A stretch of DNA of 64,000 nt from Lophium mytilinum (taxonomy: Eukaryota), in contig MU004189.1 of assembly GCA_010093605.1 (NCBI GenBank), positions 1,309,834-1,373,833 of the forward strand, written 5' to 3'. How positions within the stretch are numbered: the first letter of the stretch is position 1; each line of letters begins with the position of its first letter. The notes beneath the pieces are model-generated. The model was not told the DNA's origin, searched no databases, and saw only the letters and a list, made by a program, of their open reading frames with translations. Shown piece by piece: positions 5,867 through 50,849 of this stretch. A program made the position numbers and the translations under genes.

Positions 5867-8561
5867 CTACCGGACGGTCCACAGGTTGACGAGATTCCTG
5901 TCGACTGTCGCTAGCAGCTTATTATCTGGCGAAAATGCTAGCACTGGCGAGGCATACATGCTTGTATGCTTAAACTTTTGCAACACCCCGCCTGTTCTAG
6001 TGTCCCATAGTTCTAGTTCGGCTTTAGATCGGTCGTATATAACCAAAAATTTGCTGTTTGGTGAGAATAACGGAACGTAAAGCGTGAAACCATGGAAAGC
6101 ATGTAGAATAACACCTGACCCGGCGTTCCAAAGTCTGATCGCATAACTGTACGCTACGTCAATAGCCGTTGATACCAGCATAGTTCCGTCTGGTGAGTAA
6201 GCCAAAGCAGTGGTATTTTGTGAACTTGTCCATATCACTTTACCGTCGCCACTGTTCCATACTTTGAGGACGTTGCTGCCTTCAGCTGCTGATGCAAGCT
6301 TCCCGCCGCCATGTGGCGACAAGGCCAACGGGCCCTTATGATTGGCTCCGATGTTCCACTTGTACACCCTTTGTTTGGAAGGTATGTCCCAAACCCTGAT
6401 ATAACTATCGCGCGTAACCGTTGCTATCATCTTGTCATCTGGCGAGACGACGTAGTATCTAACCGATCTCCGATGTTTGACCTTCCATTCTGCTGCTTTG
6501 GATCCAAGATATGATACGACGATGAGCGTTGCTCGACCGTCGTGCCTCATTATTCCATCATATTGAAGGACTATTAGTGGCGAGTTGAGTGGTGAGGGCA
6601 GAGTTCCGCGCACGGGCCAGAGAACCTTTTTATACTCTGGTCTGAGGATATTTTTGCCTTTTTGAGCATCTACGTCCCATAACGTAAGCTCATAACCGCT
6701 TGCCGACGCTACTGTCTTGCTATCATCAGAACACCAGCCTACCGCGATCAGCGGGTAATTATATCTTTTGCTTTTCAGCGTCCGCAGGCTGGCTCCGGAG
6801 TAAGGGTCGACAATCCTGACCCACCCATCCCTACATCCTATAGCCAGCAGCTTGCTGTCCGCCGAGAATGCCACGCAACCTACACTGTCGGTACTAACTT
6901 CTAGCGTCCGCAGAAGCTTCCATGGTTCCTCGAAGACTGAGCTGTCTGAAGGACGAAAGCCTACGGTTGTAGTTGGTTGTTGCGTCTGGTTTGTATCTCG
7001 GCCTCCGGATCCAAAGGATGGATACACTGTTGCTGCAATTCCCTCCGATGGAAATGGTGGGTGCAATGTCTGTGCGGAACTGACGGAGCTAGAGGAAGTC
7101 GATTGACTGCCGATATTCCCAGGGGATGAGTAGCCCTGCGCTTCGGGACGGGAGCGGTTCCGTGGACTGTTGTTCTCGCCTTCACGAGGCCTCTTACTCG
7201 TCCACACAGCTCTGTCTGGTTGAGGCATAAAGGTGGTAGAAGGAGATGCTGTAATTCTTGAGTACGTTTGGGGGTCGATAATCCTAGCGCCGGACGTCCC
7301 ACTCCAACTGGCGAATGCCTCTCGAACTGTTGCTTCATCACTTCCCCTCAAGGGCCGTGTGCGCGCTGACAGAGAGACGTCCACGTTGGGTGTAGTGGAC
7401 TGCGTAATTCCTCGAAAGGGGTTGGAGCTGTGCAACTGCATCCAAGGATGGCGAAGCGCTACTGCTGCACTCGTACGGAGATGAGGATTGACTGCCATAA
7501 GGCTGCTGATCAGGGCTGTTCCACTTCCTCCAGTAACAACCTTCAAGTGTTCTTTGGGATATTCCTGAACTCCTTGAACGTAATTTCTGAGCGCGTCTTC
7601 ATCCTGGAATGTGTAATCGCCTGTCAACATCTGAAATGCAATTTCACCTAAAGCCCATAAGTCTGCCGCCTTGTGATCGTAGGAGTCCGTGTATCTGCGG
7701 GCAAAGAATAGTTCTGGCGCCAAATACGATCTCGTGCCTTTGATAGTCGACGGCTCATTTCCATTAGAAGCGCGTTTGCTAACGCCAAAGTCGGCCAGTT
7801 TTACCAACCAAACCCCCGGTGGCTGCGATTCGATAAGAATATTCTATTTCATGTTCGTTAATCAAACTCCTCTGGTGCTCCACGGTTACTTACCGCGGGC
7901 TTGAGGTCCCGGTGTGCAAAATCGTTCTCATGCATCTTTTGCAGCCCTTCGAGTATTTGCCGCGTCAAAAACTGGGCTTCTACTAGCGGTATTTGTCGCA
8001 CCCGCGAGAGGTAGCAGCGTAGATCGCCAAGCGGGTAGTACTCCATAGCAATATAGACCGTGTTTGCATTTTCGTACCATCCGAAAGACTTCACGAAGTA
8101 TGTTTCGTACTGGATCGCATCAGCCAATTCCGCCGTCTCCAAGGGAGCACCTCCAAAACTTACTTTAGGGGCTGAAAACTTTGCCACGGCTTTCAATTCT
8201 CCCAGAAAATCTGCGATCCTGGCTTGCGGAACCTTCCGGATCTTCTTTACCGCGCGAAATGCCCCAGAATTTCTGCCCTCTATGCATTCCTCTAAACATA
8301 CCTCCCCGTATCCTCCTAGGCCAAGGCAACTTGCCTGCTTCCAGTGCTCTTGGAAAGTCGTCCGTCCTCGACTGGCGCTGGACTCGACATAGCTATGAAT
8401 GGTGCGGTCTTCGTGAACAGTCGTTTGGAGATATGAATCGAGCACGAGATCTTCTTGGGCATGATCTAGTATATGGACTCCTGTATTCGCGACCGTATTT
8501 AGTGTCCGTGGGAGTCGCGGTGACGATGGGCGAAGTTGGCCTCACCAGAAGATGCCGCCAT
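5867..8561 (-). CDS. Ser/Thr protein kinase fused to a C-terminal WD40 beta-propeller
   Basis: The kinase motifs are intact: LGLGGYGEV, RAVKKI, HRDLKPANIL, KLADFG, YLAPE. An S/T/P-rich linker precedes ~7 WD40 repeats (VAFSADSKLLA...; LAYSPDGTMLVS...IRLWN; LAFSPDNKLLAT). Inferred introns 8481..8545, 8110..8163 and 7844..7892 give start MAASSGVHILDHAQEDLVLDS at 8561. Confidence 0.9.
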
Positions 8562-8820
8562 ACTCTAACCCCGAACTTGGCTCGTCACACCCTCGACTTC
8601 TTTCTGATGAGGAGTGGGTCAAACCAACTGAGCAGGGCAGGAGGTGTATGTGCTGCGCCGGGTTTGCCTTCGTGCGGGGCTGAGGCTCTGCGTGGGGGCT
8701 GTGTTGAAATCAGGCAGCAATCCAGCCTTGCGAGGTCTATACATTCATCGGCACTAACGTTAAACACTGCCATGAACGCAGAGCCTGGCACTCACTCAGA
8801 ATCAAAATCTCAATCTCTCC

Positions 8821-10465
8821 ATGTCTGGCGCGGAACTCGTTCTCAGCGTAATCGGTGCCGTCGCGGCAGTGGATGTCGCAATCAAGTATATATTTAACAC
8901 CGGGCCCTCTCTACAGCACTGACCGCCAGCCAATAATGAACTTGAAGCTGACAGTTTCTCAACAGATGCGGTTCGAAATTCGTCGCCACGTGTTCCGCCT
9001 TCAAGAATGCGGAGCGCGAAATTCTAGAGCGAGTGCTCCGTATCAACAATAGATGGTACAGAACAAAGTCTCAGCTGGCCTTTCTGAGCCGCGTTTGGTC
9101 CACCCTTGATCGTGAGCACCAGGAGCTACAAAACCAACTACTCGCAAACCTCGTCTCAGCTCTTACCATCGCCGATTCCAAAGCGAGCAGTTTCTTAGCA
9201 GGACACTCGAAGCTAGGCAGAAAAGAGAAACTCAAGTATGTCTTTTTGAAGAAGATTCTAGATAAAACAATCGCCGACCTGGATTTGTGGCAAAACGAGT
9301 TTGACCCGTCCTGGTTTTTGATTCTGAAAATTGGAGGCCAAAACATCGACAAGGAGCTCAATGTTAACATACAAAAGACCCACAATACGATTACCACCGC
9401 TTCAGGCATCCGCGACTCAATCAGGGATAGTCCCCAACAGACTGTGGCTGTACTCTTGCCAAAAGAGGATTTAGATGGAGCTAGGTTCGATGTCCTACCC
9501 TACAGTTCCGCAAAGTTAGCACAGCGAGTAAACTCGACAAGCTGGCTCATTTTGGACCCGATACGAAGCGAGTCTTTACCAGACTTTCAGCAGATGCACA
9601 AGACGGTTCGAGATCTCGCCAGAAGGCTGACCAGGACTGACCCTCTAACATTCTCACTTTTGAAGTGCAGAGGATTAGTGGTGGACAAAGCACAGCTCCA
9701 GTATACCCTAGTCTTCAAAATGCCAGACAACATGGCGAATCCCCGAAGTCTGCGCTCTAGTCTCAACGCGACAGATTTGAAGCATTCTCTCTCCGACCGA
9801 TTTCAGCTCGCGCGACAGTTGGCCCGGGCAGTCTGTTCCATTCACACCTTTGGATTGGTGCACAAGAGCATCAGGCCAGAGAACATTCTCCTCTTCCGCG
9901 ACAACAGCTCGACACTCGGGTCTGCCTTCCTTGTAGGATTTGAGAGCATTCGCCCAGAAGAAGGTTGGACGAGGCTTCGCAGCGATCTTGACTGGGAGAA
10001 GAACCTTTACCGACACCCAAAGCGACAAGGCGTTCAACTTCAGGATCGTTACATCATGCAACATGACATCTACAGTCTCGGGGTCTGTTTGTTAGAAATT
10101 GGCCTATGGACTTCGTTCGTCCAGTACTCCGGTAGTTCTCCAGATCGGACATCTCAAGGTTTCAAGTTCTTCGATAACGTACCAGACTCAGTAAATACTG
10201 CAGATTCGGTGAAGCAACAAATCTTACTCTTAGCGGGAGAAGAGCTTCGAACACGAATGGGAAGCAAATATGCGCGCGTGGTCGAGACTTGTCTCACTTG
10301 TTTAGACGAGGGCAACGAAGACTTTGGGGATGAAACAGAATTTCAAGATGAGGATGGGGTGTTGGTTGCCGTTCGATACATTGAAACAGTGAGCTGCTCT
10401 ATTCCTTAACAAACAACCGCTCATATACCTAGGTCCTCTTACAAATCAGCAACATCTTAGTATGA
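8821..10465 (+). CDS. HeLo/HELL-like N-terminal domain plus pseudokinase (fungal het-s-domain/kinase-like family)
   Basis: Exon 1 encodes the hydrophobic N-terminal helix MSGAELVLSVIGAVAAVDVAIK. Intron ~8886..8964 joins it in frame (KCGSKFVATCSAFKNAEREILERVLRINNRWY) to ORF 9033..10409. The C-terminal kinase-like fold has HKSIRPENILLF, LVGFE, LYRHPKRQG and HDIYSLGVCLLEIGLW. Last intron 10389..10432, stop at 10465. Confidence 0.82.
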
Positions 10466-10515
10466 ATGATCCTGGACTTAGACGTTGCCCAAAACTTGAT
10501 GCCATCAGCAATTGT

Positions 10516-11067
10516 TCAGACATACTCGCCGCCCTTCATCCAGCCAAGCTGTTTCCACATATTCAGTTTATCCCACTCTTTCGTAAAGCTCTTCACTTTC
10601 CCGTCTTCTACCTCGAAAATCGCCGAGGCGGTCCATGAAGCTTTATTCCCCGTGGGCTGGATGCCGTTGTGTTCCTTGCCGCAGTGGCTCCCTTCGGCGG
10701 AATACCTCAAGCAGACCATTCCACCTTTCGCAAATATGATATCGTAGGATTTGATGTGCAGATCGGCAACAGCGGCCATTACGTGGGAATGCGAGTCGGC
10801 GTAGTCGAGAGGTGTGTGGCATCCGGGGAAGGTGGTGGGTGCTGTGAAGGTAGCGTTCTCCGCGACGAGGTGCTGGACGCTGTCACGGCCGGTGTTTTCT
10901 TTGGGGGAGTAGCTGATACGCATGTACTCTTTGACGACGTCGACGTTTTTCTGCAGGGTGTCAGTTTCATCGCCTGGAAATATGGGAGGGGTGTGAACGG
11001 CGATGGTACTTACAGACTCCTCATCGCTCTGAGCGACGGTCAGTTTTGAAGGCGGATATTTAGGCAT
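10516..11067 (-). CDS. SnoaL/NTF2-like ester cyclase family protein
   Basis: 183-aa ORF with ADLHIKSYDIIFAKGGMVCLRYSAEGSHCG...GIQPTGNKASW...FEVEDGKV...WDKLNMWKQLG, a SnoaL-like pattern. Confidence 0.85.
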   Translation of the reverse strand: MPKYPPSKLTVAQSDEESVSTIAVHTPPIFPGDETDTLQKNVDVVKEYMRISYSPKENTGRDSVQHLVAENATFTAPTTFPGCHTPLDYADSHSHVMAAVADLHIKSYDIIFAKGGMVCLRYSAEGSHCGKEHNGIQPTGNKASWTASAIFEVEDGKVKSFTKEWDKLNMWKQLGWMKGGEYV

Positions 11068-12722
11068 CGTGGGTGTTTATTTGATGGGGTATTTGATTAG
11101 GGGCATGTTAAATAGATGTAGTTGTTGGTATAACCACTAAATAGATGGAGTTGAGGTCATCATAACCTCATCTGGCGATCGCAAGGCGACGGCATCATGA
11201 CGTCCTCTCTTAAAATTTCCATCAAAGTAATCATTGAGATGCGAACTATCGGTATCCATAGATTGTCGAACGATAAGTAGAAATTGCCATAGGTGGAGCG
11301 GTGGTGTCGAGTGCGAAGTTGAAGCGTGCTACAGGAAATGCGGCGTGAATCTTCTCTAGAATCACAACCATTGGTCGGAAATTGATCAAATTTCTACATC
11401 ACTCATTGGCTAGATTGGGATTAAAAACAGGAGTCACGTGATACCAGGTATGCCTCCGCCAAATCTACGAATTTCGTTCCACATCCAAGAGCTGAGCATC
11501 CTTCAGGCTATGCTTATATTCTTTGGGCCCTGCGCCTTGTTTGTCTCAATAAAAGGGGAACAGATTCATCGATTGTTCTATCCTGCCCAAGATAAATCGG
11601 ACCTATCTTTGTGCCGTGAACTCCTAAGTTTCTGTAGCCTCAGCGCAGTATAAAACACGGCATACAATCACTCCGAATACCCCTCTGCGGCTCATGAACC
11701 CTCTCTGTTTGTTACCGGCCCCCGGAAGTCCGCGTTTTGGATCATTTCTGATTGCGCGCGCCAGTTTCTTCGCCGCATGCAGGAGGCCCTTCACTCCCAA
11801 ACTGCGAGCAACCGCCACACCAACACTGAACGTGTCATCTGCGTTTCAATTTAACAACGCACCCTCAAGCCTCCATAGGGCTGAATCCCCAGGCTGTGGT
11901 CATCTAAGGCACCTCCGCCTTTTGCACGCGCTGCCGCCGCTAAGCATGCACACCAGCGAGGCGCAGCTCGCATTGCGGCGTCCTTTGCCTTTTCTGTGCT
12001 GCGGATCAACATCAAAGCCCCATGACCGCTCTGCATCAGGGTCGCGCTTATGCAGAACTCGGACTGTACGCGCCCGCTTGGACTACAGCTGTATTTCCTG
12101 GGACTCTTGACTGGCCGCCTCGTGCCGGCAGTGTGGTAAGACAGAGCCAGATCCACTACTGCTGATGCGGAGTGACCCTGAATTAGACGCAAAATGCGAG
12201 GAGCCTCATCCATCACAGCCCCCAATACACCACCAGTTCACTGCCATTAGGTAACCAGAGATCGCTGGCGTCAGTATACATATAGGAGTCCCTCCTAATC
12301 TCTCTCACCGCAAACCCTATTACTTCCGCTTTCTATTCGTCAAGTGTCGTTCGTTGCCAGATATCGCCTTCCATTTTTAATAAGCTTGACGATCGTTCCT
12401 GCATCTACTACACTTTCGCCCGTCAGCACTCACCTCTTGTTACACCTAGACGTCACAAGGCAACTAAGAACTCCCTGTATTACAACTTCAATTCTTTGTG
12501 ACTCAAGTCTCCTACGCCTCGCGCAACGTCACCTAGGGTAGGCTTCTACGCCTCTCGAAGTTGTACATATACATACAAAGAATCCACGGAAACACGAAAA
12601 GTAGCCTAAGGACGAGTCAAGTTCTATATAAGCTCGAGCGCAAACCTTTATAGTTTACACCCACACGAATAGCACATTCACATCCCTCATACTTCAATTC
12701 TTACACGTTCTTACTGATTGCC

Positions 12723-14816
12723 ATGCACGACCGCAATCCTCACGGAACAGCAGGCATGGATCTCGCAACTCTCGAAACAAATCCACACGCGCCGTTGAGG
12801 CTTCTCTCCCTCGACGGAGGCGGTGTACGCGGCCTATCTAGCCTGATGGTTCTCGACGATCTCATGGAAAGTATCGCCATAGAAGAGAAGCGACTCGGTC
12901 GGAGACCACAAAACGACAGAACACCCCTCAAGCCCTGCGACTACTTCGATTTGATCGGAGGTACGAGCACCGGCGGCATCATCGCTATCCTCCTTTCCCG
13001 CCTTCGATTGGACACCAAGCAATGTATTGGCATCTACTCAAAACTCGCCGAGCAGATCTTCAAGCATGACCGGTCTATCAAAGTCGCGGGCATGAAACTG
13101 CCAACAGGCTCAACCCGCTTCTCCGGCCTCGTCCTCGAAAAATCCATCAAGTCTGCCCTTGTGGATCTAGGTTACGACGAGAACGAGCTCATGTGGGACG
13201 ACTCGCTCTTCGAAGAAGTGCCCGACAATGACCCCTTGCCGCGTGATAGCATCTGGGCCGACACCCACTCTCCGATTAACATGACCGTCTCCCCCGTCGA
13301 GTCAGCGAGAGCAGACAGTCTCCTCCCAACCGGAGGCGACAGCAAAGCACCCACCAGCAACATCGCAGACGAAATACCAATGCCCAAGCATGCTCTCACC
13401 GAGCCTTTTGGGCCAGGCCTCAGCAAACAAGCACGCACCTCGACCTGGAAGCTTCATCCACGCCAATCCGTGCACCAAAAAGTCGGCAAGAAAGGCTGCC
13501 GCGGCTTCGTCCTAACCTCCCTCAAGAACGCGCTCGGCCTCCCCCGAATCCTCTCCACCTACGACCCCAACGACCGCCAAACCCGCATCTGGGAAGCCCT
13601 GCGCGCCACCTCGGCCGCGCCCACCTTCTTCGAAGAGATGCAATTCGGCACACCCAAAGTAACCTACCTCGACGGCGGCGTCGGCTTCAACAACCCCTGC
13701 GCCGAAGTCGACTACGCCGCCAAAGCGCTGTGGGAAGGCCGCTCCATCGGCACCATCGTGTCCGTCGGCACCGGCCTGCAGTCGATCCCCTCGGTCAAGA
13801 AAATCGCCTCCTGGCTCCCCTTCGGCCTCGGCACCGACATCTCCCTCGCGTCTGCTCTCGCGAATATGGCGACCAGCACCGCGCGTGTTGATAACGAGAT
13901 GAAGCGCATGTACCTCGAGAGCGACACGCGCTACTACCGCTTCGACGTCGACCGTGGGCTCGCGAACATCTCGCTCGAGCAGTGGATGCGCGAGGACGAG
14001 ATGGCGGCGCTGACGGAGCAGTATATGCGCGACGCGAAGCAGCTAAGGCGCGCGCGGCAGCTGGGCGAGCTGATGGCGAAACTGTCGGCGCTGCCGCCGC
14101 GTTTTGAGATCTCGGCGACGCATTTCCGGATCGGCATGGACGGGCGCGGGCTCATCGATCAATCATTTAATCTTGCCCAGGTGGATTTCAAGACCGGGAT
14201 GCCCCTAGGCGTCGCGCCGCATCTAGATGACCTGCCGAAGATGTCGAAGTTCCGCAATTCGAGCCCGAGTGGGGAGAGCGGGTTGGCGATTGATGCGAAT
14301 GGGAGGATGCGGAAGGTGTATCCTGTGGCGTCGGATCTCGATGGGGATGGGAGGAGGCAGGAGGCGGCGGTGTTCCAGTGCGTGCGCGCGGATAATGTCT
14401 GTTTGAGGACGCTGAAGACGGGGATTCCGCAGGGGAAGTATCGTGTTGTGTTTATTGTCTCTTTCCAGAACAGTAAGTATACCGCGCCTGAGAATATCGT
14501 TTTCAGCGTTGGGAAGCCGTTTGATGCGCGGACGTTTACGCAGCGGTTTGTGGATGTCAATATCACGCCTGATGCTGTGGGCGTGCTGCTGCACCCGGAT
14601 GCGGTGAGGGTACGCGTTGGGAAGAAGAGGTATGCGGAGAACAAGGGGAAAGGGTGGTTGGAGATTGAGGGGGATGTGGAGGTCCAGGTGGGACTCGATG
14701 GGGCGTTGGGGTTTGTGGTCAGTAAGAGGTATGAGGAGGATTGCTTCGTGGATGGGTTTACATTCGGGGGAGTAAGGCTGGAACCGGTGTTCGGGGGCCA
14801 GGTTAGTAGGGGGTGA
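12723..14816 (+). CDS. Patatin-like phospholipase (PNPLA/iPLA2-gamma-like) with extra C-terminal beta-sandwich domain
   Basis: Intronless 697-aa ORF with LLSLDGGGVRG, FDLIGGTSTGG (catalytic Ser), ATSAAPTFF, YLDGG (catalytic Asp) and VSVGTG. Confidence 0.93.
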   Translation: MHDRNPHGTAGMDLATLETNPHAPLRLLSLDGGGVRGLSSLMVLDDLMESIAIEEKRLGRRPQNDRTPLKPCDYFDLIGGTSTGGIIAILLSRLRLDTKQCIGIYSKLAEQIFKHDRSIKVAGMKLPTGSTRFSGLVLEKSIKSALVDLGYDENELMWDDSLFEEVPDNDPLPRDSIWADTHSPINMTVSPVESARADSLLPTGGDSKAPTSNIADEIPMPKHALTEPFGPGLSKQARTSTWKLHPRQSVHQKVGKKGCRGFVLTSLKNALGLPRILSTYDPNDRQTRIWEALRATSAAPTFFEEMQFGTPKVTYLDGGVGFNNPCAEVDYAAKALWEGRSIGTIVSVGTGLQSIPSVKKIASWLPFGLGTDISLASALANMATSTARVDNEMKRMYLESDTRYYRFDVDRGLANISLEQWMREDEMAALTEQYMRDAKQLRRARQLGELMAKLSALPPRFEISATHFRIGMDGRGLIDQSFNLAQVDFKTGMPLGVAPHLDDLPKMSKFRNSSPSGESGLAIDANGRMRKVYPVASDLDGDGRRQEAAVFQCVRADNVCLRTLKTGIPQGKYRVVFIVSFQNSKYTAPENIVFSVGKPFDARTFTQRFVDVNITPDAVGVLLHPDAVRVRVGKKRYAENKGKGWLEIEGDVEVQVGLDGALGFVVSKRYEEDCFVDGFTFGGVRLEPVFGGQVSRG

Positions 14817-16767: not shown

Positions 16768-17713
16768 GAAATGATCTAGAGAGTCGAAAAAGAGGTTGAT
16801 AGACAGAGGAGAAATGAAAAAGGAACATTAGAACAGAAAAAGGAGAGCTGAGACACTCGACGCGCTGTTTATGTAGCCGTGATGGTTCTTTGATGACTGA
16901 TGAAGTCTAGAATGTTACAAAGGTAGTGCCCGTACCCGAGTTGGTGAGAGCTGTTAAAGAGATACACGCTAGGGATTTATGGATACCTCCATTTTTACCC
17001 AACAAACCTTTTTGACCTAGACAAAAAGGGCTCTGTGCGGATGACCTTACTAGAAGGAAAATTAACGGACTTTCTGAGGATAAAAAAACTGCAATATTGC
17101 CTTACGCGTTTCGATGTGTTTTTAAACGCCAACCCGAAGATGGGTAGCGCGAAGTGTACTTTTACTTGACCCTGCCGATCTACCCCTCACCACCACAGAG
17201 CTTCTAAGCCATTGGCGTATGAATAAGCTAGGTATACATATTTCGAGGCCCTAACGCAAGCAGTAGCTTGGCTTAGAGCCCTTTTATTGTTAGAGACTCT
17301 AGAAATGAAATTGGGTTGAACGGATTGCTCTACTCAACGTTACCGGCCATCTAAAAGGTGCCGTCACCGTGCAGGGAACAGTTTGGGATGTTGTGACGTT
17401 GCCTATAGAACATGAGATTTTATATGCTATCATGATTATTTCTTCCTTCCAACGTCTTGTCCAAGCCAGACTTTGAACGGAACCTCAATGCTCCCTCCGC
17501 CCCCAACTCCACCCACTTTTACAGCGCATCAACCCCGCTCCCCTCAACTGACCTTTTGGTCTACCGACCTCGAAACTAGTCAGCAGTTGGCTCAGGAGCA
17601 GTGCGGACTAAGGTTGTGAGGTTTATAAAATTTAGGATGCGGCCGACTTCTTATAGCTGGCAGATTGGAGCTCGCTGCGCTAGCTGACTCATCAGCGCTA
17701 GACCTATTAAAAT

Positions 17714-18385
17714 GGAGGAGCTTACTTATCACCCCCCCCTTCTCTGCGTATCACCCCCCTTTTCTTTGTATATCACCCCCCCTACATTAAGCTAGCTCCG
17801 GCCCGTATCAATAATGTTCCACCAATCCAACTCACTTGTTTGCCTCCGTGTCGGCTTAGTAAGGGCTGCGCAAAATAGAGAGTATGCATTATAAAATAGA
17901 AAGGCTGTACTATCTAGGCCAACAGGACTCTATTTGCTCTATCTATTGTAGCTACTCTACAAGCGGAAGGCAGCCGCTATCTAATTGCTGGCTGAAAGGA
18001 ACGCCAACTAGGCCTGTATACCATGGCCTTATACCCAAATATCCTCTAGTTCCTTCACCACAAGCAGCCTCTTCCTTAGGCGTAGATATAAGGGCATCCT
18101 TAGGGCCTGGTTGGCTGTTGGGGACTAAGGAAGTTGAACTCTTAAGTAGCTGTTGGAGTGCCTGCTTATCCGGCATGGTGGTGAGGCTGGTGATGTATTT
18201 CATTGAGAGAGTGCGCGCTGGTAACGTAAATTCCTTATTCATCGAGCAAGAGCAGGCAAGCAAGTGAGTTGGATTGGTGGAACATTATTAATACGGGCCG
18301 GAGCTAGCCTAACGTAGGGGGGGTGATATACAAAGAAAAGGGGGGTGATACGCAGAGAAAGGGGGGGTGATAAGTAAGCTCCTCC
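17714..18385. mobile_element. Non-autonomous TIR DNA transposon (MITE), Mutator-like, 672 bp
   Basis: ~132-bp TIRs at 17714..17845 and 18254..18385 start ggaggagcttacttatcaccc. They are flanked by the direct repeat attaaaat at 17706..17713 and 18386..18393 (8-9 bp TSD). The TIR copies differ only by transitions. Confidence 0.9.
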
Positions 18386-18499
18386 ATTAAAATGATGTTA
18401 TAATCCTGGTAGTACATATTTCACTAGCGTCTTGGCAAGTAGGTAGCAAAAGGAAGTTGGAGTTCCTGCATAGCGCGAATCGGGCCCTAGGTAAGAGGT

Positions 18500-21891: not shown

Positions 21892-22675
21892 TGGCTACCA
21901 CTAGGGTTGCTTCTGATCTCTGCTGCCTTTTCTTTCTATTGCTTTATGACTCTCTCAGGTCTCAAACCCCCTTTCAAGCGTCGACATCGGGATATCATCT
22001 TCAAGGAGCTTCGTCTTTCCTTCTCGGGTTAAATCGATGACTTCAACAAACCGAAGCTCCAACTAGGTATTCCGCAACCCCCTTAGTTTCAGCGTTGCAT
22101 ATTCAATTTTGTGTCTGTCTGGGGCGTCTGTCGGGCAAACATGGGCTTCTCCCCCTCTCCGACATACAAGTACAACATCAACCGAGCATAGCACGAATAG
22201 ATCAGATGGTATATAGTCATGATCACTCACTGATGTGCCATGATTGCCCTATAACGACATTTACGATTCTCGATAAATTTCGTTCTCTTTGGAACGCCTA
22301 CCATGGACTTCAGCACTACAGATTCTGAGTATATGTATGTACTTCCTCCCCTATCGAGACATTTAGGTACACGTCGTGTCTTAATTGTCTCTTGATCCTA
22401 TCACTTTCACTAGAGACCGTTTTTCGGGGCCTTCATAGCTTATCAGAATGATAGCCTGCGACGAATCGACAGCTAACAGTGGTTGCGTTGTTGAATGCAT
22501 GAAATCTTTTGAGAGCCACCACGTACAAGCCTCGAACGCGCAGTAATGATCGGTATCTCTAATCATTCCCAAACCGCTCTATCCAGCGACTTCCCTTAAC
22601 TCTCTAATACGTCTCCGCAACCCCCACCCCACTACCGGCCCGACACCCCCAGAACAGAGTCGCTCGCATCCCATG

Positions 22676-22860
22676 CAGCAACCTGGACACTGGCACCTGT
22701 TCCTCGCCAATCGCAGGCCGTGAACATCGCCTGATTGAAGCGGCATTCCCGTTCCCGCTTCCCTCCGTCGGCTGTGCCCTCCACGCGAGGGGTATCCCTC
22801 ATGATCATTGAGAAGGGCCGCTGCTTACTTGCATGTTCAGGTCATACTCCTGCTTACTCT
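22676..22860 (+). repeat. Diverged direct repeat, copy 1 (partner at 32687..32883)
   Basis: cagcaacctggaca.tggcacctgttcctcgccaatc...gtgaacatcgcctgatt...gcggcattcccgttcccgcttcc...ctgcttactct aligns colinearly with 32687..32883. Confidence 0.9.
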
Positions 22861-23198: not shown

Positions 23199-26100
23199 AT
23201 GGAGAACAACATCGAGCTTGGAGGCATCCAAGCCAAAATCCAGTCGCAAGGTTCCAGTTTCGACAGCCGCCGTCGTGAAGTGCGAAGACGGCGATTCCAG
23301 TCTAGCGAATACTCAACCCGCAAGAGATCCAACAACGACCACGCTCTTGAGGAAGAGTCAGCCTCACAGCCGCTCTTGCTGATCCTTCGTATTCTAAGCT
23401 ACCACAAGATTCGACTCTTCTCGGTTAACCCAAATCAAAGATGGAATTTACGACAGGCTCTCGGCGATGGAAGCACATTTTCTGTGGACGGGGCAGAGTT
23501 ACCTATCTGGGACGCCTTGGCTCACTTGAGATATCGCAACCTTGACATAAAGGGTCCCAAGGAAAAGTTCAACTTCGTCGATCATACGCGCATAAGCTGG
23601 CAGCACACAACGCTTGTAGCCTATAAAGCCTTGGTCGGTAGGAAAAGCATGGACAGAGGCATGATCATGCAGGATCTCATTACAGAACTCCGGGTTCTTT
23701 GCCATCGCCCGCTTCAGAAGCATCCCAATTTCGTTCGACTGCTCGGAGTAGCTTGGATCAGTGAGATTGACATGGGGTATACGGATGACGCCGAGCCACG
23801 TGAATGGCCAACAGTGGTCGTGGAGAAAGCACCCCACGGTTCGCTTCTTGACTTTTTGAGCTCAGAAGAATTCAAGACAACGCGCTCGTCGTTAATGGCG
23901 AAACTGAATCTCTGCATAGACGTTTTGATCGCAATCGTAGTAAGTGTTTGCAGTCCACTTTAGGAAGTGACGCCTAATATGAATTAGGCCCTACATGCGT
24001 GCGATATCTTGCATGGCGACATCAAATGCGAGAATGCTCTCGTCTTTAACACAGAAAAGGGGACAGCGGAAAACTGGAGAGTGAAATTATCGGACTTCGG
24101 TCATGCTATTCTGAACATGCAGGGCAAAGGTTCCAGTGGCTTCACAAGGCGAGAAGTTATTGGTACGGATTTCTACAGCCCCCCAGAGCTTAGTAGCGCC
24201 GAGGCAGTGATAGATGTTGCGAACATGAAAAGCGTCGATGTATGGTGTTGGGGTCTTTTGATGTGGAGAGTGTTGATCGACGGAATGGAATACAGCGATG
24301 CAGAGGGACATCAAATTGATCCAGGCGCAATGCGAGCGCTCAGAGAGCAGGGCAATATTGCTGCCACAGCAAAAGATGCTTGCAAGAATTACCTCAATCT
24401 ACACCACAGTCGGGAAGGCGCAGCTCTAAGTTCGATCGTTGGGATCCTAGTAGACGCCCTTTCCCATAACGCAGCCGACCGCCCAGATGCTCTCTCACTG
24501 CTCAGCCGTTTGAGAAGGGCCTCATCTGACAGGTGAGTGAGACGCCAGACCAGACTGGAAGGTTGCTCAAACTAATTTCGATTAGGGAAGCTGAGGCGGT
24601 AGAGAATTTAGTGCCGGAAAAGCCCCAGTCGATAGAATCTCTCGAGGCCTTACCTTTCTTTAATGTACGTATACCATTCTCCTAATTATATTACTCCATT
24701 CTAACGTCTAGGAAAGCTCACACAATACTACTACGACCTTTGGATGCTCTTGGCCGTTCCTCGCGACATATTGATCGAGCTGCAATCGTTGCATGCCGTT
24801 GACGCGGATGGTTCCCTAGAAGCCACTTTCCAGCTTGGACTCTGCCATGTTGCCGGCTTTGGAGTGCAACGAGACGGCCAACAGGCAGTGGACTTAGTCA
24901 AGCGCGCCGCGGAAGGAGGTCTTTCCAAAGCGCGATTGGCTCTTCCCCGGATTGCAGGCGCTTTTGGAGTCGCTCTGTCCCCCGAAACTCGTCAGCTTGT
25001 AATCTCTTGGCTAATCGAAGCATCGAGGAACGGCCCTGGGATCGCTTGGATGGAATTGGAGCGACTTGGCTTTGAGCAGCGGATCTTGGGTCCTTCCGAA
25101 CTCCTGCGAACTGCAACAAACATCGCCAAATCCCCACACGATTCTGGATTGCTGCATGCTGTAAAGCTAGGTGATGAAGAAGCCGTCCGGAAATTAAGTA
25201 CACATGGCAGTTTTCCTGGACAATTCGGAGAAACTCCCTTACATTGCGCAACCCTATTGCCCAAAAGCGTTGGTCTTCCAATTGCTGAAATCTTGCTCAA
25301 AGGCGGCGCCAACATATATCAGCCGACATCTCGACAATATCAACTATCGAGAGATGACTTTATCCTTGAAGCGATGCCTGAACACACCACACCGCTGGAA
25401 TGGGCCATCATAAACGACCGTGTTTCCTTCGTGAGACTCTTTCTTGAGTTTAGCGAAAGTTCAGATCTACCATCTGAAGTCTATGGATCGACAACCACAC
25501 CACTTGCATATGCCGCCAGGCATCAAAGTATCAAGTGCCTTAAATACCTCTGCAATGAGCATGGTCGCAGTAATGCTGATATCAACACCTTCGACAAATA
25601 CGGATTCTCGGCCTTTTACTACGCCGTGCGCCCCGATCTATTGGACCGTGTGTTACGCTACGTGCCGGAAGAGAGAGATGGGCCTACAAGATCGGATATC
25701 TCGCCTGTTGTCGCGCGCGAGGAAAGCATTATCAATATGCTTGTAGCTTCTGGCTCGGACATGAAGGTCAGCTCCGCGGGACATTTCAACTGTCTACATC
25801 TCATCACAGCATTCGGCGAGCCATCTACCCTTGAGGCGGTTCTAAATATTAAAGGAAGCGATCTACTCGTCAACCAAGAGTCTCAATACGGTTGGACGCC
25901 TTTGGTGGATGCTATTTTTTGGAGGCGCAAAGATTCATTCAAACTTCTTCTCGAACATCACGCGAGTCCAAAAGACATATGGCCCAAAACCAAGCGACAT
26001 GCAATTCACACATGTTGTCTCCTACCAAACACGTCGTCGGCGCTATTCTTCGCTGAAACATTACTCCATGAGCATCCATCCTGTCTGCATGCCCGAGATA

Positions 26101-27663
26101 CATGGAATCGAACACCCTTGCATTTCGCGGCTATTTTTGGCAAGCTAAAACTGATCGACCTGTACTTGTCTAAGGGTGCGAAGCTGCTTGTATTTGATAT
26201 TCACCGCATTACCCCTCTAGGATTGGCGGTAGAAGCTAGGTCGATGAGAGGTGTCAGAAGACTCCGAGATGAACATGACAGCAGGAACCTACCTCTCCTA
26301 GGATTCAAGACATCTTCTTTGTCGCCCAGGTACTTCTCGGTATTCCATTTCTTACTTCAACCTGGAGGGAAGTCTCCAACGTATGTTCGAAACTCTCGAG
26401 TTCCGTCACCTTATCCCGGTTGCGCCGATCATCCATTCTCAGGACCCTCTCTGAATGTCCTGGACGACCTACTCAGTCATTACAAATATCGGGTCAGTTT
26501 TGGCATCAATTTCATCGAAAGCATTGTACATTCTCCCTACAAGCATGAAAGCGGGATCAGGGAGGCCGTGCAAATGGCGAATTGGGATGCCGTTGACATG
26601 ATCCTGAAATCGGGAAAGTTCACGGTCGATTTACGGCACTTGCTCAAAATCGCGTTCGATCAGCGCATTCTGGGCTCAGGGCATTTTGCGAGCGAAGATG
26701 CGAGGAAAAAGATGGTCAAATACCTTTGGCAAGAACAAGAAGAGGAGTACCAAGCGCTGTATAAAACTCGCCAAACATCACTAATGCGTTTCCTATGGAG
26801 ATATCATTACCGGATGTACGGCACCATGGAACAGGAACAATATCAACGAGTCAATCAATGGCTTTTTGACAACCGCTACCTGTGGCACAAACCCATGTTT
26901 CCAGATCTGGACTTATGGGTCCACACCCGCTTGCCGGTCACGCTGATTCTTTCTATCTTCGTAGGGTGCTTGCTCTGTCCACTCCTAGTCTGCCTTGCCA
27001 TTATAACCGCTGATCCGGCCACGCAATATGGAACTCGCAACAAAGGCCGAACTGGTGTTATGGTGTTTTGCGTAAGTCAAGCGTTGATCCGATGCTGGTT
27101 GCATTCGCTGATTAGTTCCGTAAAGACCAGTACTCTACTTTTCTTTCCGCAAATGCTCCGCGGCTTGACAATCGCTTACTGTGCATCTCAGAAAACGCTA
27201 AAACTCCGCAGCTGGCAGATGCGACTTGTTCAATCTGTTCTTTGCTTGGCCGTACCCGCTCTCGGAGTCTTCAACATCTGGATTTTGAACCCTGAAAATG
27301 CCAACATTGTACGGTTTCATCCGAAATATTCGCTGGCGAAAGGTGTTGCATGGGATGCAAGGGTTTTGCCCCCCTGGAGACAGAACATCCTTGGGCATTT
27401 CTTCCGACTGTGTGATGTTCTACTCGCATGGTCTGTAATTGCTTATGTGTAAGTGTTTCCGTCGACTCCGCCGACTCATCTATTGTTCTCGACGACTGAA
27501 GGAGTACAAGCTGATTATATGCAGAGTCTTCCCAGTGATCATACTAGGCACTTGGTGGATTACCACGTTCAATTTCCGCAAGACTCCACGACTTGACGTG
27601 AGCGAGGTAAGCTTGCAGAAAACGTATGTTACATCGCGGAGGGGGTGGCCGTGGCTGGAATGA
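23199..27663 (+). CDS. Protein kinase + Sel1-like repeat + ankyrin repeats + C-terminal transmembrane region
   Basis: Kinase motifs LGDGSTFSV, VAYK, HPNFVRLLG, HGDIKCENAL, KLSDFG, YSPPE and DVWCWG. Introns 23940..23987, 24533..24585 and 24665..24716 join ORFs 23199, 24009 and 24744 in frame. Sel1-like ATFQLGLCHVAGFGVQRDGQQAVDLVKRAAEGG; ankyrin GETPLH, TPLEWA, GWTPL, RTPLHFAA; hydrophobic C-terminal helices. The 3' exons are uncertain. Confidence 0.85.
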
Positions 27664-27902
27664 GGTTGAACGACAAAGTATCGCAGTCAAACAGGGCCAT
27701 CATAGTTTGAAAAGATCTCCACCAACCCTCTTTCTACATTGATGGGTCGCTGTATAGCTTACAGTAATATACTACTGCGTATCTAGTGCCGCATTCCAAA
27801 ATTTGCTATCAGGAGGAACTTTCCATATTCTGTTCGGATGCATCGAGGCTCTTAGACAGTGTTAAGTACAAATGCAGACGTGTACTGAAGCTCTGTGGTT
27901 TG

Positions 27903-29075
27903 CTAGTTGTTTGACCCAGTGCCTGCGACGAATACTACTAATACCGTTGTGAACCTACACACGACAGTTTGATCGTGGTCAGTTCGGCCATTAAAATCTA
28001 GGAGAGGGAGATTGACATACGTTGCACCGGCTACAAATATCTCTCCTGTTCGTGCTTTAGTGAGCATAGACAACACTATGATAAATATCGTTGACGATAT
28101 TGCAATCACCAGCAGCCGCAATGCGACGCTATCAATCGCATTCACAATTATGACGGGTATGAGGAGAAGCAACACAAGCAGGCTCGCCACCAAAAAGCGC
28201 CCTAACCGAGCAACCAGAGCACTTGAAAAGATGTGCACATTTGGATCGCGCGAGACCTGCAGACGGGGGCTCTGGGACCGAATCAGTACATTCTCCCGCA
28301 CGTACAGCGTTTTCGGATTCTAGTGGGAGCCATACTTTGTTGAACTTCGTTGCAATCCAGATCAAGAAGCCCTCGATTGGACCCTCAAACGCATTTAATG
28401 CTCTATCCGCAGGGCTCGCTAATGTAGCCAGGTCTTCGCCTTTTCCAAGATACGCTGTTTCTTGCCGGGCCAAACACCCAGTGCTGTCGATCCAGTTCTC
28501 TAAGTTTGCAATGTCTCGCCGGTTTGGGCGCTCTAGTCCCAGTACCCGTTCATTGCGGTGGATCAGCTCATCTATCAACACCTCCTCAGCGATGACAGCA
28601 CATAAGAGAGCGAACAAGGAGACCTACCATAATCAGCTAATGCTGCATCGATGTTTTCTAGCACCTGCTTGCGGGCCGGGTTGCTATCGCGCCGGTAACT
28701 TCCAAGGAACAGGACCTTGGGCTCTTCGCGGTCGATTTGCTCGAGCTGTTCCTCAAGCTGGGAGAGCTTGTCTTGCTTGTGGAGGAGCATTCGAGCTCGC
28801 AGCGCGGAAAAGCGGCGACATATCTGGAAGTACGGATGGGAGCTAATGAGTGCTGCGAAACGGGGATAGCCAGATGGGAAGTCTTCGACTGTGTTTCATG
28901 GATTAGAGCTCATCTGGATAATTCGTCTACGTCTCATTGAAAGGGTACCTTGGGTGATCGGCGGTTTGACGGAAGTCTCGTTGCCACGTCGAAATGCTCG
29001 GAGTAAGCGAGTGCACAGTGAAGTAAGGCATCGCGGCATACGCTGAGAGGCTTCTAGTGGGATCAGATCAGCCAT
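27903..29075 (-). CDS. DUF6594-type fungal protein with C-terminal transmembrane helices
   Basis: Spliced translation ...VEDFPSGYPRFAALISSHPYFQICRRFSALRARMLLHKQDKLSQLEEQLEQIDREE...YLGKGEDLATL...LLLIPVIIV...IFIIVLSMLTKARTGEIFVAGAT...VLVVFV, which matches DUF6594 motifs. The start exon (ATG at 29075) is inferred. Confidence 0.82.
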
Positions 29076-30028
29076 TTCAGAAAGATGTAAATGCTACATC
29101 GATCTCTAGAAACCCGGGTATAACTCAGCGCTGCTAAAAAAAAAGGCCCTGCCAGCGGCTCTTCTACTTCAACGTCTTCCCTCGAGGATGTACCTCCCAC
29201 TCTCCGGCCTAAGTAGCTGCATATCTAATTCCCACGATTGGCTAGTTCTCAGATCTGCTGCATGTTCTAGGATGCACTGCCAGCTGGCTGACAAGGATGC
29301 GTGACCACTTACTATCCTGCAACGTAAGCCACAAGGTAGAGCAGCCAAATCCGGCGAACTTACAATTCTGCCTTGGCATCTAGAAAACCAACAGTGAGGC
29401 TACTGCTGCCTGGCGGCATGTGAGGATACCTCATAATACGCCTCCTCACTCCGCTCGATCCCGCATTCCGCTTCAGCCTTCTCACGCTACCATCTGCACA
29501 CCTCATTCTGCGAATACCATGGACGCCCAAAAAGCGTAAGGCTCCTCGCTACATATCGTGAAGCTTACTGAATGCCTTTAGCTCGAGGGCGTACAACCCA
29601 GATTGGGCCGCTGCTAGCTCTACCAATTCTGCTGGTCGTCCGACTATTCAGCGCGGCACGGTAAGTGTCACGATACTCCTCGCACTTGCATGTGTGGTAA
29701 GTAATGGTTGGTAGAGTAGTAGCTACCGACCCGAAGATAGAGTCTGGCTCTCGACAGAAGGCCGTCGAGGGCTTGAGGGCCCCTTTCTTGTAGCAAAGGT
29801 GTCGTCGCCAGGAATCTACATTCTCTGTTTTGAGAACGGAAATCCGGCAAAGGATGGTGCTGAGATTGAGGAGTCTCGATTGTCCTTAGCTCAGTAAAAG
29901 TTCTCGAGACAGAGTCTCGAGATTTCGTGTAGAAAGCACCATTGAATGTGTCGGCCTGCGAAGCTTCTAGAAATAAAATAAGGAGAATTTCAGAACGGGA
30001 AGAAGAGCAGATCGCAGGGTATCTTAAA

Positions 30029-32332
30029 TTATCCCTCTACATCAAAGAACGACGCCCCATCAAGGTCCAGTCCGGCATCGAAACTTTGCAAAACCCTCCC
30101 GTGGAAAGCCCTCCCCAATTCACACTCAATCTTATCGTCCTTCTCAACACCGAAGTCTCCCGTCAGGCAAGTGACCGCCGCATCCTCATACGCCAAGCCC
30201 ATATCATGGCTCAACAACCCTTTCGACTTGTTAAGTATCTCATGTCGCAGCGCCAGAAGTCCTTTCTGCTTCACAAATCTGCCAAACATACTTGGAAGAA
30301 GATCCCAAAGACCGATTTCGAGCAACAGTAGCCCGAAAGAGTAATAGTCGTGTATTTTTGAGTGCCTTTTGGGCGGATAGCGCCCTTGGCGGTCTGGGTG
30401 GCGGTATATGTCGTTGACAACGTCCTTCTCGTATCGCTTCGTGGACGACTCGTCGCTTTCGCGGGTGAAGTCGAAGCCGCACAGGTAGGGCTCCGAGTAG
30501 TCGATGCGATATCTGTTCTTATGTCTGAAGAAGACGATGTTGTAGCTCGCAATACCCTGATGAACCCACCCAACACCGTGCCACTTCAGCAACGCTTGGC
30601 CGATCTTTCGTGCGATGTTGAAGCGCTCACCTAATGTTGGCCGCTGGTGTCGTGATCGAGTGCTACTTGCCCTTTGACTGTGGTTCCAGAGGATGGTTTG
30701 AAGACTGACCGGCACATACTCGTTCCCGACGGGATTAATAAATATTAAGCCATGTCGACCCTGGTCTTCAGCGGAGAAATAACCCAGACACTTCGGAGTG
30801 CGAAAACCATCTGACTGAGGTGCTTGAAGGACGTCAGCAAGGCGTTTCAATCGACCTTGGCTGAGATCATCCAAGTTCTTATCGGAGTCATCGAGGTGCT
30901 TGTATTCTACAAGAACGGTTCCGTGAGTAGGGTGTTGTTCAGTGAACAGTGATACGGTCAAGGGAGTATCTGCCTGCGGGTCTGGTGTATACGACGCTCT
31001 TTCTAACAAGTTATCGGACTCTACCGGAAAGTTGGCCATCAATCGCACTTTGAGTGATTCTACAATCCCGAGAATCCGCATTTCAGGATCACTGATTGCC
31101 TTCGTCAAACAATCCTTTTGATGGAGCTCTGGCAATGCCATCACGTTCCTTTCAATCGTATCTTGCAAAGCTAGGATACTAGTCTCAAAGCTCCGCAAGA
31201 ACCTGTGTACTTTGATCTCGTCTACGGTTGCGCTGTTTTGGTGGTTTCCATAAGAAGAAAATGAGGTCGCCAGCAGCTTCAGAGCGTTTCCTAATCGAAC
31301 GTTGAAGATGTCCCAGGCGCTGCGGATCTCTTTTTTTGAAGGGTTGGGCATCTTTCTTAGTTGGGCCAGTGATTGGACCTGCGGTGGATGCTCCAAAACA
31401 AAATCGCGAAGACACTCAGCTCGAGACACAACATCAGTGACCATAAGTCCTGATATTTCTCTAGGAGCGTAGGTTTTGAGCCAGTAGATGATTTCGTCAA
31501 GAAGTTCCCCGGACAGTGGGCTGCGTACCGTCATTCTAAGCGTCAAAGCTGCCTCTTCGGAATTCAGCCGTGGCGTTTCAGCAGAAATAGAAATGAGAGG
31601 CTCTAAGCGTATTGTCTCTCGTCTACCTCCCAGCGGGAAGTACAGCGGGGTTTGGAGAAGGCAGCGGTCCGCGCGAGCAAGTTGATGATGTATATCAGCT
31701 ATCCGTGCGTGGCCTTTTGCCTTGAGAGAATCTTCTACTTCCTTGATCCAAGCTGTGGTGAAGGAGTCTTGGCCTGGGCTCGCGGCTTGACAGCCCATCG
31801 CACATGACGCCTGAAGCTCGACGTTTGGGGGGACAGTACGGTCACTAGCTCCTCGTGCAGCTTGTGCAGCATAGCAGCAGTCTAGCAGCAGGAGGACGTC
31901 CCCTCTGGCGTGTACTAGCTTTGGCTGTATTTCATACCAGTCCAGCGTTGGCCCATCCTCACTTTGAGCGGCCCAAACCGCACGCCGCCGCCTATCTTTT
32001 GAAGCGAGGAAATCTTGATCGCCATGACCCCCGTAATGGACGATTGCTAGAGACCGTTTCGGGGGAGACTCTAGCCGAGTCAGGAATTGTGCAATCGCTG
32101 CATCTAAGGCAAGGTGGCTATCGCGGGTTGGAATGGCGAATTGATGGACACGGAATTTCAGTAGCTCTTCGAAGAGCTTCTTGAGCCTGAGAGCTTCCGT
32201 CAGGAATCCAGGCTCGTCGCTCTCTTCCCAATAAAGAAGCAGGACTTGAATAGAGTCATAGTCGTTTTTCGGATTCCTGTCAAATTGCTCCTTCAAGCCT
32301 ACATTGATCTTACTCTTCAGTGCGTTGGTCAT
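30029..32332 (-). CDS. Caspase-like (peptidase C14-fold) domain plus C-terminal pseudokinase of the same family as 8821..10465
   Basis: Intronless, with ATG at 32332 in gccgccATG context. N-terminal VLLLYWE, LAIVHYGGHG (His) and DVLLLLDCCYAA (Cys) form a caspase-type dyad. C-terminal VLVEYK, PTLGERF, WVHQGIASYNIVFF, PYLCGFDFTR, IYRHPDRQG and HDYYSFGLLLLEIGLW. Confidence 0.85.
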   Translation of the reverse strand: MTNALKSKINVGLKEQFDRNPKNDYDSIQVLLLYWEESDEPGFLTEALRLKKLFEELLKFRVHQFAIPTRDSHLALDAAIAQFLTRLESPPKRSLAIVHYGGHGDQDFLASKDRRRRAVWAAQSEDGPTLDWYEIQPKLVHARGDVLLLLDCCYAAQAARGASDRTVPPNVELQASCAMGCQAASPGQDSFTTAWIKEVEDSLKAKGHARIADIHHQLARADRCLLQTPLYFPLGGRRETIRLEPLISISAETPRLNSEEAALTLRMTVRSPLSGELLDEIIYWLKTYAPREISGLMVTDVVSRAECLRDFVLEHPPQVQSLAQLRKMPNPSKKEIRSAWDIFNVRLGNALKLLATSFSSYGNHQNSATVDEIKVHRFLRSFETSILALQDTIERNVMALPELHQKDCLTKAISDPEMRILGIVESLKVRLMANFPVESDNLLERASYTPDPQADTPLTVSLFTEQHPTHGTVLVEYKHLDDSDKNLDDLSQGRLKRLADVLQAPQSDGFRTPKCLGYFSAEDQGRHGLIFINPVGNEYVPVSLQTILWNHSQRASSTRSRHQRPTLGERFNIARKIGQALLKWHGVGWVHQGIASYNIVFFRHKNRYRIDYSEPYLCGFDFTRESDESSTKRYEKDVVNDIYRHPDRQGRYPPKRHSKIHDYYSFGLLLLEIGLWDLLPSMFGRFVKQKGLLALRHEILNKSKGLLSHDMGLAYEDAAVTCLTGDFGVEKDDKIECELGRAFHGRVLQSFDAGLDLDGASFFDVEG

Positions 32333-32686
32333 GGCGGCGAGACCTCGAGAGGGGAGATTCAAGAGAAGAAAGGAGTATTGGCACCAACAGGCTGCCTAGG
32401 CTGAAGGCAAGCAGCAAACCGCCTCGAAAGTGAGCCTTGCGGCTTTAGCGCCATAAATGCGCCTAGCCTCCTGCATGTCTCCAAGAATAGCGGCATGACC
32501 GGTCAATGCGGCAGTATTTGATCAGGGGATACTTCGAGTCTCTGGACATGTTGGAGAGTGGTGGAGGTGATACGGGGAGCCCCGCTGTAGAATACGATCC
32601 CGGCCTGGTGGAGTGAGGCTGACGGTGTGCAGATCAGCCTCGGGCTGTTTTCCATCAAAGATAAGTTTACTCGAGAATATCTCACA

Positions 32687-32883
32687 CAGCAACCTGGACA
32701 ATGGCACCTGTTCCTCGCCAATCACAGCCTGTGAACATCGCCTGATTATAGCGGCATTCCCGTTCCCGCTTCCGCTCCGTCGGCTGTGCCCCCTCTACGC
32801 GAGAGGTGGGGTATCCCTCATACTTAATCATTCAGCAGGGCGGCTGCTTACTCGCATCCCCAAGTCATACTACTGCTTACTCT
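32687..32883 (+). repeat. Diverged direct repeat, copy 2 (partner at 22676..22860)
   Basis: Colinear match to 22676..22860 with substitutions and small indels. Confidence 0.9.
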
Positions 32884-50830: not shown

Positions 50831-50849
50831 AAATGTCACACAATTTCAG

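Follow-up and report, generated by a model that had tools for sequence, protein, structure and literature searches.

We analysed a 64,000-nucleotide stretch of Lophium mytilinum DNA (hereafter the window: GenBank assembly GCA_010093605.1, contig MU004189.1, positions 1,309,834 to 1,373,833 of the forward strand) and found a cassette of four intact genes at positions 23199-32332. It comprises a non-RD protein kinase with ankyrin repeats, a DUF6594 membrane protein, a 92-aa microprotein, and a protein named CMP for its caspase, middle and pseudokinase parts. The four genes very likely form one functional unit. As to its role, we tentatively favour, at just short of even probability, a fungal module for defence or cell death, built from two smaller ones and wired from the kinase through CMP to DUF6594. 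An earlier note on this DNA had described a three-gene cassette; its three genes are real and intact, and the gene it missed, that of the microprotein, is the most tightly linked partner.

Gene content and transcription of the cassette

The features of the cassette are given below with their positions in the window and their strand.

22668-22860, plus strand: direct repeat, left copy, about 200 bp, bracketing the cassette with the right copy
23199-27663, plus strand: non-RD protein kinase with Sel1-like region, ankyrin repeats and C-terminal hydrophobic helices; 1393 aa, six exons (23199-23939, 23988-24532, 24586-24664, 24717-27071, 27126-27448, 27525-27663), from Pfam, splice joints, motifs and hydropathy
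27903-29075, minus strand: DUF6594 membrane protein; about 303 aa, five exons (29075-28949, 28888-28628, 28571-28336, 28256-28021, 27954-27903), Pfam PF20237 on three pieces
29519-29897, plus strand: SH3/Tudor-like microprotein; 92 aa, three exons (29519-29535, 29582-29660, 29715-29897), gene model identical to annotated protein P0196
30029-32332, minus strand: CMP; 767 aa, single exon, with a caspase/metacaspase-fold protease (~22-250), a helical middle (~270-440) and an MLKL-like pseudokinase (~440-760), from Pfam C14 (E = 4e-5), alignment A2, model and fold search, hhalign and a motif table
32679-32883, plus strand: direct repeat, right copy, adjoining 32631-32678

The kinase gene is intact and carries the Sel1, ankyrin and hydrophobic segments attributed to it in the earlier note. 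Its catalytic motifs were complete (GDGSTFSV, of the form GxGxxxxV, at residue 89; VAYK at 140; HGDIKCEN at 256; DFG at 283), Pfam returned Pkinase, Ank and one Sel1 match (E = 2e-4, under the curated cutoff), and hydrophobic peaks lay at residues 1199, 1275 and 1338. A homologue search yielded eight matches, three of them true relatives. The DUF6594 gene, which had been described as convergent, multi-spanning and about 240 bp away, does converge on the kinase gene, with 239 bp between the two stops, and encodes three hydrophobic helices. Its start codon and third intron are modelled, and its last intron is supported at low depth in sequencing run X3. The microprotein gene lies between those of DUF6594 and CMP, diverging from the former and converging with the latter.

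The cassette is transcribed, as seen from spliced contigs in X3, which was taken to be an RNA run from its GT..AG joints (no run is recorded as RNA; X1 is a DNA run). All five kinase introns, first modelled from sequence, were present as GT..AG joints in X3 contigs and none were in X1; the start of the final exon was set at 27525 because the last X3 joint placed it there. X3 cover was little or nil over 28115-29617, which says nothing about expression. One spliced X3 contig spans 20772-27071, linking a DUF7730 gene with the kinase gene across an additional GT..AG intron of 120 bp (22335-22454); it represents either a long 5′ untranslated region or merged transcripts.

The two copies of the direct repeat are identical in 173 of 205 columns (84%) and may be a trace of the arrival of the cassette. 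The repeat was found at none of the 70 related loci described below, and no empty site across it was seen in two runs, the contigs of which can show presence only. The stretch at 32631-32678 also matches further contigs from the runs that cover the window. PADLOC returned generic kinase matches on the cassette and nothing else. NACHT or NB-ARC, the centre of fungal NOD-like receptors (NLRs), had no Pfam match in any cassette piece scanned.

Linkage of the four genes across fungal loci

We estimated the linkage of the four genes from a metagenome scan with the CMP alignment. The scan confirmed 334 stretches, the best 80 of which gave 70 loci; neighbouring genes played no role in this choice. 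Thirty-nine loci were of CMP type and 31 were controls, carrying a related pseudokinase without the caspase domain. Clustering at 72% identity resulted in 19 CMP lineages, with the window in that of locus L001, and 22 control lineages. Informative lineages were those in which the gene was present or the flank reached at least 600 bp downstream (microprotein), 3.5 kb downstream (DUF6594) or 7 kb on each side (kinase).

The microprotein adjoined CMP in 17 of 17 informative lineages compared to 0 of 20 control lineages (Fisher p-value 6e-11), and DUF6594 was near CMP in 11 of 12 compared to 0 of 9 (p-value 3e-5), with lineages not fully independent in either test. The clustering of the protease with a candidate effector gene that the earlier note had supposed is thus recurrent. 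A non-RD kinase was near CMP in nine of 11 informative lineages (nine of 13 under a looser rule), one of the nine resting on separate contigs (L020, L025, L050); for the control pseudokinases the figure was 14 of 15. Absent from two of the 11, the kinase is not the constant partner that had been assumed.

All four genes were present on 10 single contigs from six lineages, which answers the question of co-occurrence elsewhere that the earlier note had itself chosen as a refuting test. Gene order changes among loci, yet the four genes remain clustered. L001 has the gene order of the window at 65–70% nucleotide identity, and the likeness ends at the two outer start codons. Flanking genes were otherwise unrelated between loci (58 of 80 listed frames scanned). 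Microprotein homologues were found at 30 of the 70 loci, and CMP and the microprotein have consecutive locus tags in Plenodomus and Alternaria. By raw pairwise identity, DUF6594 co-diverged with both CMP domains (rho 0.71 for pseudokinase versus DUF6594, n = 11), and the correlation between pseudokinase and microprotein was weak (rho 0.32, n = 17).

Some loci had particular features. L069 and L070 contain a fragmented CMP without the His motif and no kinase; in L069, positions 5340-12173 form a decaying copy with weak microprotein and DUF6594 matches. A NLR of HET-NB-ARC-TPR type lies directly upstream of CMP in L006 (6092-9304), and an AbiEii-like nucleotidyltransferase lies downstream of CMP in L026 (13877-14752). 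A kinase fragment near L067, which we take to resemble casein kinase 1, was excluded from the kinase count.

The CMP protein

The earlier reading of CMP as a caspase-type His/Cys dyad fused to a dead kinase held at the level of both motifs and fold. The protease has the motifs HYGGHG (99-104) and DCC (151-153), giving the dyad His103/Cys153. In the pseudokinase, HQGIASYN replaces HRDxxxxN and GFD replaces DFG, and the catalytic Asp is gone. Pfam at E up to 0.05 returned Peptidase_C14, DUF7580 and Pkinase and nothing else (so no S8 or CHAT). In the predicted model (predicted local distance difference test, pLDDT, 76.8), residues 26-246 matched metacaspase 4 (6w8r; Z 19.9, root-mean-square deviation (rmsd) 2.9, 211 aligned), and residues ~440-760 matched the RAF, IRAK, RIPK and MLKL kinase folds, which were tied at Z 17-20 (MLKL 6vbz: Z 17.6, rmsd 4.4, 243 aligned).

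Among 8000 candidates scored, the homologue search with CMP retained 29 proteins, the names of which we take to belong to lichen fungi, Sordariomycetes, Dothideomycetes and Leotiomycetes. In alignment A2, which includes 27 of the 29, DCC was invariant and a HYGGHG-type motif was present in every row covering it; the dyad motifs were intact in 28 of 30 caspase domains. Asp151, two residues ahead of Cys153 and presumably part of the S1 pocket, was likewise invariant, which suggests a specificity for Arg/Lys. Passages of PMC13304501 give it as a general rule that an acidic S1 pocket leads to cleavage after these residues.

The pseudokinase retains a candidate phosphosite. Of 34 CMP domains, all have the G and F of its GF[DE] motif and 29 have E or D at the third position. 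Ser630, in the activation loop, was invariant both in A2 (27 of 27) and in the CMP domains from the loci and the window (34 of 34), and 29 of 32 related pseudokinases have Ser or Thr at the same position; its neighbours on either side (625-629 and 631-632) are variable. Ten columns reach at least 85% Ser/Thr, Ser630 being one of them, and in the model it falls in a low-confidence loop. Human MLKL has GFE for DFG, with the RIPK3 sites T357/S358 just after it (PMC6013482). The kinase probably acts on the CMP pseudokinase: this link, drawn in the earlier note and presumably a phosphorylation, gains specific support from the invariant Ser630 and from the ancestry described below.

Partner kinases and the ancestry of CMP

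The kinases beside CMP fell into several groups, intermixed with partners of HeLo-pseudokinases, on a tree of 37 of 40 rows. A single clade for them was rejected in an approximately unbiased test (p-value 9e-5; LG+G4, 26 rows, with 14 near-copies, short or long-branch rows omitted), and at least three changes were forced. Judged from sequence, the partner kinases stem from at least three lineages and the kinase is an exchangeable part; because they form no single clade, the kinase-CMP pairing is not one inherited accident. Within one lineage, the kinase shifted from upstream (L004, L023) to downstream (L006, L007, L010), still in the cluster.

All 36 readable catalytic loops were non-RD (HGD, HAD or HSD); four of 40 could not be read by pattern. 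According to passages of PMC4295470, the non-RD type is associated in plants and animals with innate immunity. Most partner kinases carry ankyrin repeats, and one lineage has a kinase with a short tail. A hydrophobic peak of at least 2.0 was found in one of 17 partner-kinase stretches, several of which are cut by contig ends or introns. The membrane-anchored sensor kinase of the earlier note therefore does not extend from the window to the cassettes in general.

The control pseudokinases are HeLo-pseudokinases: of 71 listed frames of at least 200 aa, 40 were scanned, nine of them with a Pfam HeLo match, and most partner kinases of these pseudokinases are followed by ankyrin arrays. On a FastTree phylogeny of 63 of 66 domains (L048, L069 and L070 were too short), the CMP domains formed one side of a branch with support 93, and their nearest outgroup was L027, a HeLo-pseudokinase with a kinase-ankyrin neighbour. 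Pfam HeLo had no match in CMP, and the part of CMP that aligns to HeLo-pseudokinases, at their last helix and brace, is limited to about 70 residues; for this region (~371-440), hhalign scored 33.8, whereas 30 reversed or shuffled controls reached 17.6 at most. The simplest history would have CMP derive from a kinase-paired HeLo-pseudokinase, with the caspase domain, together with the microprotein and DUF6594 as partners, replacing the killer head. Because the tree has no outgroup root, the direction of this replacement is an inference. With the HeLo killer head lost from CMP, a separate membrane effector fits.

The same data bear on a reading with two modules and no cross-talk, in which the protease, microprotein and DUF6594 act alone as a trio, the kinase is a passenger kept by ancestry or shared immune islands, and the pseudokinase serves as sensor or decoy. 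CMP and kinase do not co-diverge, the kinase is missing in L003 and L069/L070 and was unseen in L002 and L014/L018, where flanks are shorter, and other immune-type genes lie nearby at some loci, such as the NLR in L006. We nevertheless consider this reading distinctly unlikely. Kinases from at least three lineages were paired with CMP, one changed side and remained in the cluster, and flanks are otherwise unrelated. Ser630 is invariant, and L069/L070, one of the two kinase-less lineages, is the one in which CMP is fragmented and lacks its His motif.

A second pair of related genes lies elsewhere in the window, at 5867-10409, where a kinase-WD40 gene (minus strand) stands head-to-head with a pseudokinase (8952-10409, plus strand) of the same wider family as that of CMP. 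The kinase of this pair has a HRD loop.

DUF6594 and the microprotein

DUF6594 is a large fungal family (1743 representatives at E ≤ 0.001). The model of a homologue (pLDDT 89) was helical, with two 3-residue strands, a long helical hairpin and C-terminal hydrophobic helices. A fold search with it returned generic helical hairpins only (best Z 9.0, rmsd 3.1, 69 aligned), Foldseek gave no match at E ≤ 0.001, and Atlas returned DUF6594 alone; these searches do not establish that the fold is new or that the protein is no pore former. In Pfam, the protein matched DUF6594 only and is thus tied to no pore-former family. The gasdermin analogy on which the earlier note drew did not extend to the protein itself: it is all-helical with three hydrophobic helices, and the gasdermin core is beta-rich. 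A conserved cleavable extension on DUF6594 was looked for and not found. Three of the 150 top DUF6594 matches (P0057, P0062 and P0156, all NCBI gene models) carry an annotated fusion to a C14 protease of another clade. They may be real fusions or merged neighbours, and they show DUF6594 pairing with a second protease type; none has a microprotein match.

Across 28 members of the microprotein family, Pfam gave three single weak matches and otherwise no family, and no convincing solved relative was found. Its SH3/Tudor-like label is a lead, taken from an Atlas hit (0.90) to a KOW-type cluster and from the UniRef name on P0202. The N-terminal tail is variable and about 30 aa long. A conserved basic motif in this tail was seen at just two of 22 loci and was rejected.

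These two partners leave room for a four-gene unit wired differently, in which the protease cuts the microprotein or some other protein of the cell, or in which DUF6594 acts ahead of the protease, as a scaffold in the membrane or as a guarded sensor. Such a unit might follow toxin-antidote logic or that of allorecognition (het-type), the antidote then being the microprotein. The microprotein is linked to CMP more tightly than DUF6594 is (17 of 17 versus 11 of 12), stays in L008 where DUF6594 is missing, and has the variable tail; for Podospora HET-Vb, passages of PMC9262711 propose that a Tudor domain acts as a reader. Against this stand the co-divergence of DUF6594 with both CMP domains, its annotated fusions to another C14 clade and the loss of the killer head from CMP, and we regard such wiring as unlikely.

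A non-lethal output of kinase-gated proteolytic signalling, for example, membrane-protein processing in stress, transport or development, would agree with the transcription of the cassette in X3, with the lack of a family match linking DUF6594 to a pore former, and with the many pro-survival roles of metacaspases (PMC13304501, in part). We judge it very unlikely, as a patchy spread (29 matches), exchangeable sensor kinases, flanks unrelated between loci, repeats on both sides and an ancestry among HeLo-pseudokinases are more in keeping with accessory immune genes than with housekeeping ones. Fungal death pathways are, moreover, often two- or three-gene clusters, according to passages of PMC12881547.

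Proposed mechanism

The reading that we favour, from the kinase through CMP to DUF6594, would proceed in three steps. At the input, the ankyrin-bearing non-RD kinase would sense a trigger and phosphorylate Ser630 of CMP, as RIPK3 does MLKL. The phosphorylated pseudokinase would then oligomerise via its retained brace helices, bringing the caspase-fold domains together and switching on the protease, which probably cuts after Arg/Lys. The analogy here is with MLKL, in which phosphorylation drives pseudokinase dimers and brace-mediated tetramers (PMC10603135, abstract). The output is the step with least support: here the protease would activate DUF6594, most simply by cleavage, the microprotein serving as adaptor or inhibitor, and activated DUF6594 would disturb the membrane and cause cell death or arrest. 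That DUF6594 is the direct substrate of the protease is plausible but somewhat doubtful, and the whole chain, from trigger to membrane output, we would expect to fail slightly more often than to hold. A sharper version, in which an exchangeable sensor kinase phosphorylates a MLKL-type switch, rewired in fungi, that turns on the caspase-fold protease and so frees DUF6594 as a new class of helical executioner, with the microprotein as cofactor, is a possibility with the balance clearly tilted against it.

Several observations weigh against this mechanism. L003 has intact CMP, microprotein and DUF6594 genes and lacks a kinase over 7.3 kb upstream and 10 kb downstream, and L008/L009 are without DUF6594 within 10 kb on each side. 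The loci are mostly metagenome fragments, and seven of 19 lineages were uninformative on DUF6594 and eight of 19 on the kinase. Divergence of pseudokinase and kinase was uncorrelated in CMP loci (rho −0.06, n = 8) compared to HeLo-pseudokinase pairs (rho 0.70, n = 15), all divergence correlations being of raw pairwise identities without species-tree control. The hhalign probability of the brace match was just 40%. Ser630 lies 11 residues past the G of GF[DE], farther than T357/S358 in MLKL, and could have a structural role. The N-terminal extensions of DUF6594 vary in length and sequence, and a conserved basic site was not found in them. Phosphorylation, cleavage and toxicity are inferred.

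If the mechanism is true, one cassette of four genes couples a necroptosis-like input to a pyroptosis-like output, and control of a protease by a pseudokinase would connect cell-death parts in a new way. The cassette would give DUF6594 a first testable role, and it is a compact system for asking whether fungi use kinase-to-pseudokinase switching like that of animal necroptosis.

Other features of the window

Four further features were observed in the window.

12654-14816: patatin-like phospholipase, C-terminal half without annotation
17706-18393: 140-bp inverted repeats, 95% complementary and 408 bp apart, resembling a small non-autonomous transposon
50139-56576: several degenerate repeat families with a spacing of about 110-140 bp and no long open frame, perhaps a repeat-protein gene that has decayed or is rich in introns
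62013-63008: immune-inhibitor-A-like metallopeptidase tail fused to a ricin-type lectin domain

Comparison with known systems

Parts of the cassette have precedent in print, as far as the passages of the papers cited go. A 2025 review (PMC12881547) describes HELL domains, some of which are fused to kinase or pseudokinase domains, and states that kinase-like domains also occur fused to the proteases that control gasdermins; these passages name no activating kinase. The main text of PMC8851545 does not contain the word kinase, and its Dataset S1 could list caspase-kinase fusions. A search of the literature for fungal pseudokinase, caspase-like and HeLo clusters, with most subscription papers outside it, found nothing describing the kinase-CMP-microprotein-DUF6594 cassette and no mention of DUF6594 by name.

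The cassette shares with RIPK3-MLKL and the fungal HeLo/HELL-pseudokinases an active kinase beside a pseudokinase, GF[DE] for DFG, the absence of the catalytic Asp, a candidate activation-loop phosphosite and brace-like helices ahead of the pseudokinase domain. It differs in that the N-terminus of CMP is a caspase-fold protease rather than a four-helix or HeLo membrane killer, in having two more linked genes, and in its exchangeable, ankyrin-bearing kinase.

Like the het-Q1/het-Q2 gasdermin-protease clusters (passages of PMC8851545), it is a patchy small cluster in which a multi-domain protease gene accompanies a candidate membrane effector. Unlike in those clusters, the effector is the all-helical DUF6594 with its three hydrophobic helices and not a gasdermin, the protease scores as Peptidase_C14 and not as S8 or CHAT, and a separate active kinase and a microprotein are included.

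The CMP protease resembles metacaspases (clan CD, C14) in its His/Cys dyad, its caspase-haemoglobinase fold (Z 19.9) and the Asp two residues before the catalytic Cys; unlike them, it is fused to a helical region and a pseudokinase, and its identity to solved members is 8–18%. Podospora het-V (HET-Va, a methyltransferase, and HET-Vb, MLKL/HeLo with Tudor; passages of PMC9262711) also sets an enzyme gene beside a MLKL-related protein and has a Tudor-type domain in a death module. It differs in being without protease, pseudokinase or DUF6594, and any Tudor likeness between HET-Vb and the microprotein is one of description. The cassette belongs to neither the MLKL nor the gasdermin family and resembles a RIPK3-MLKL switch wired to a protease and membrane-effector output.

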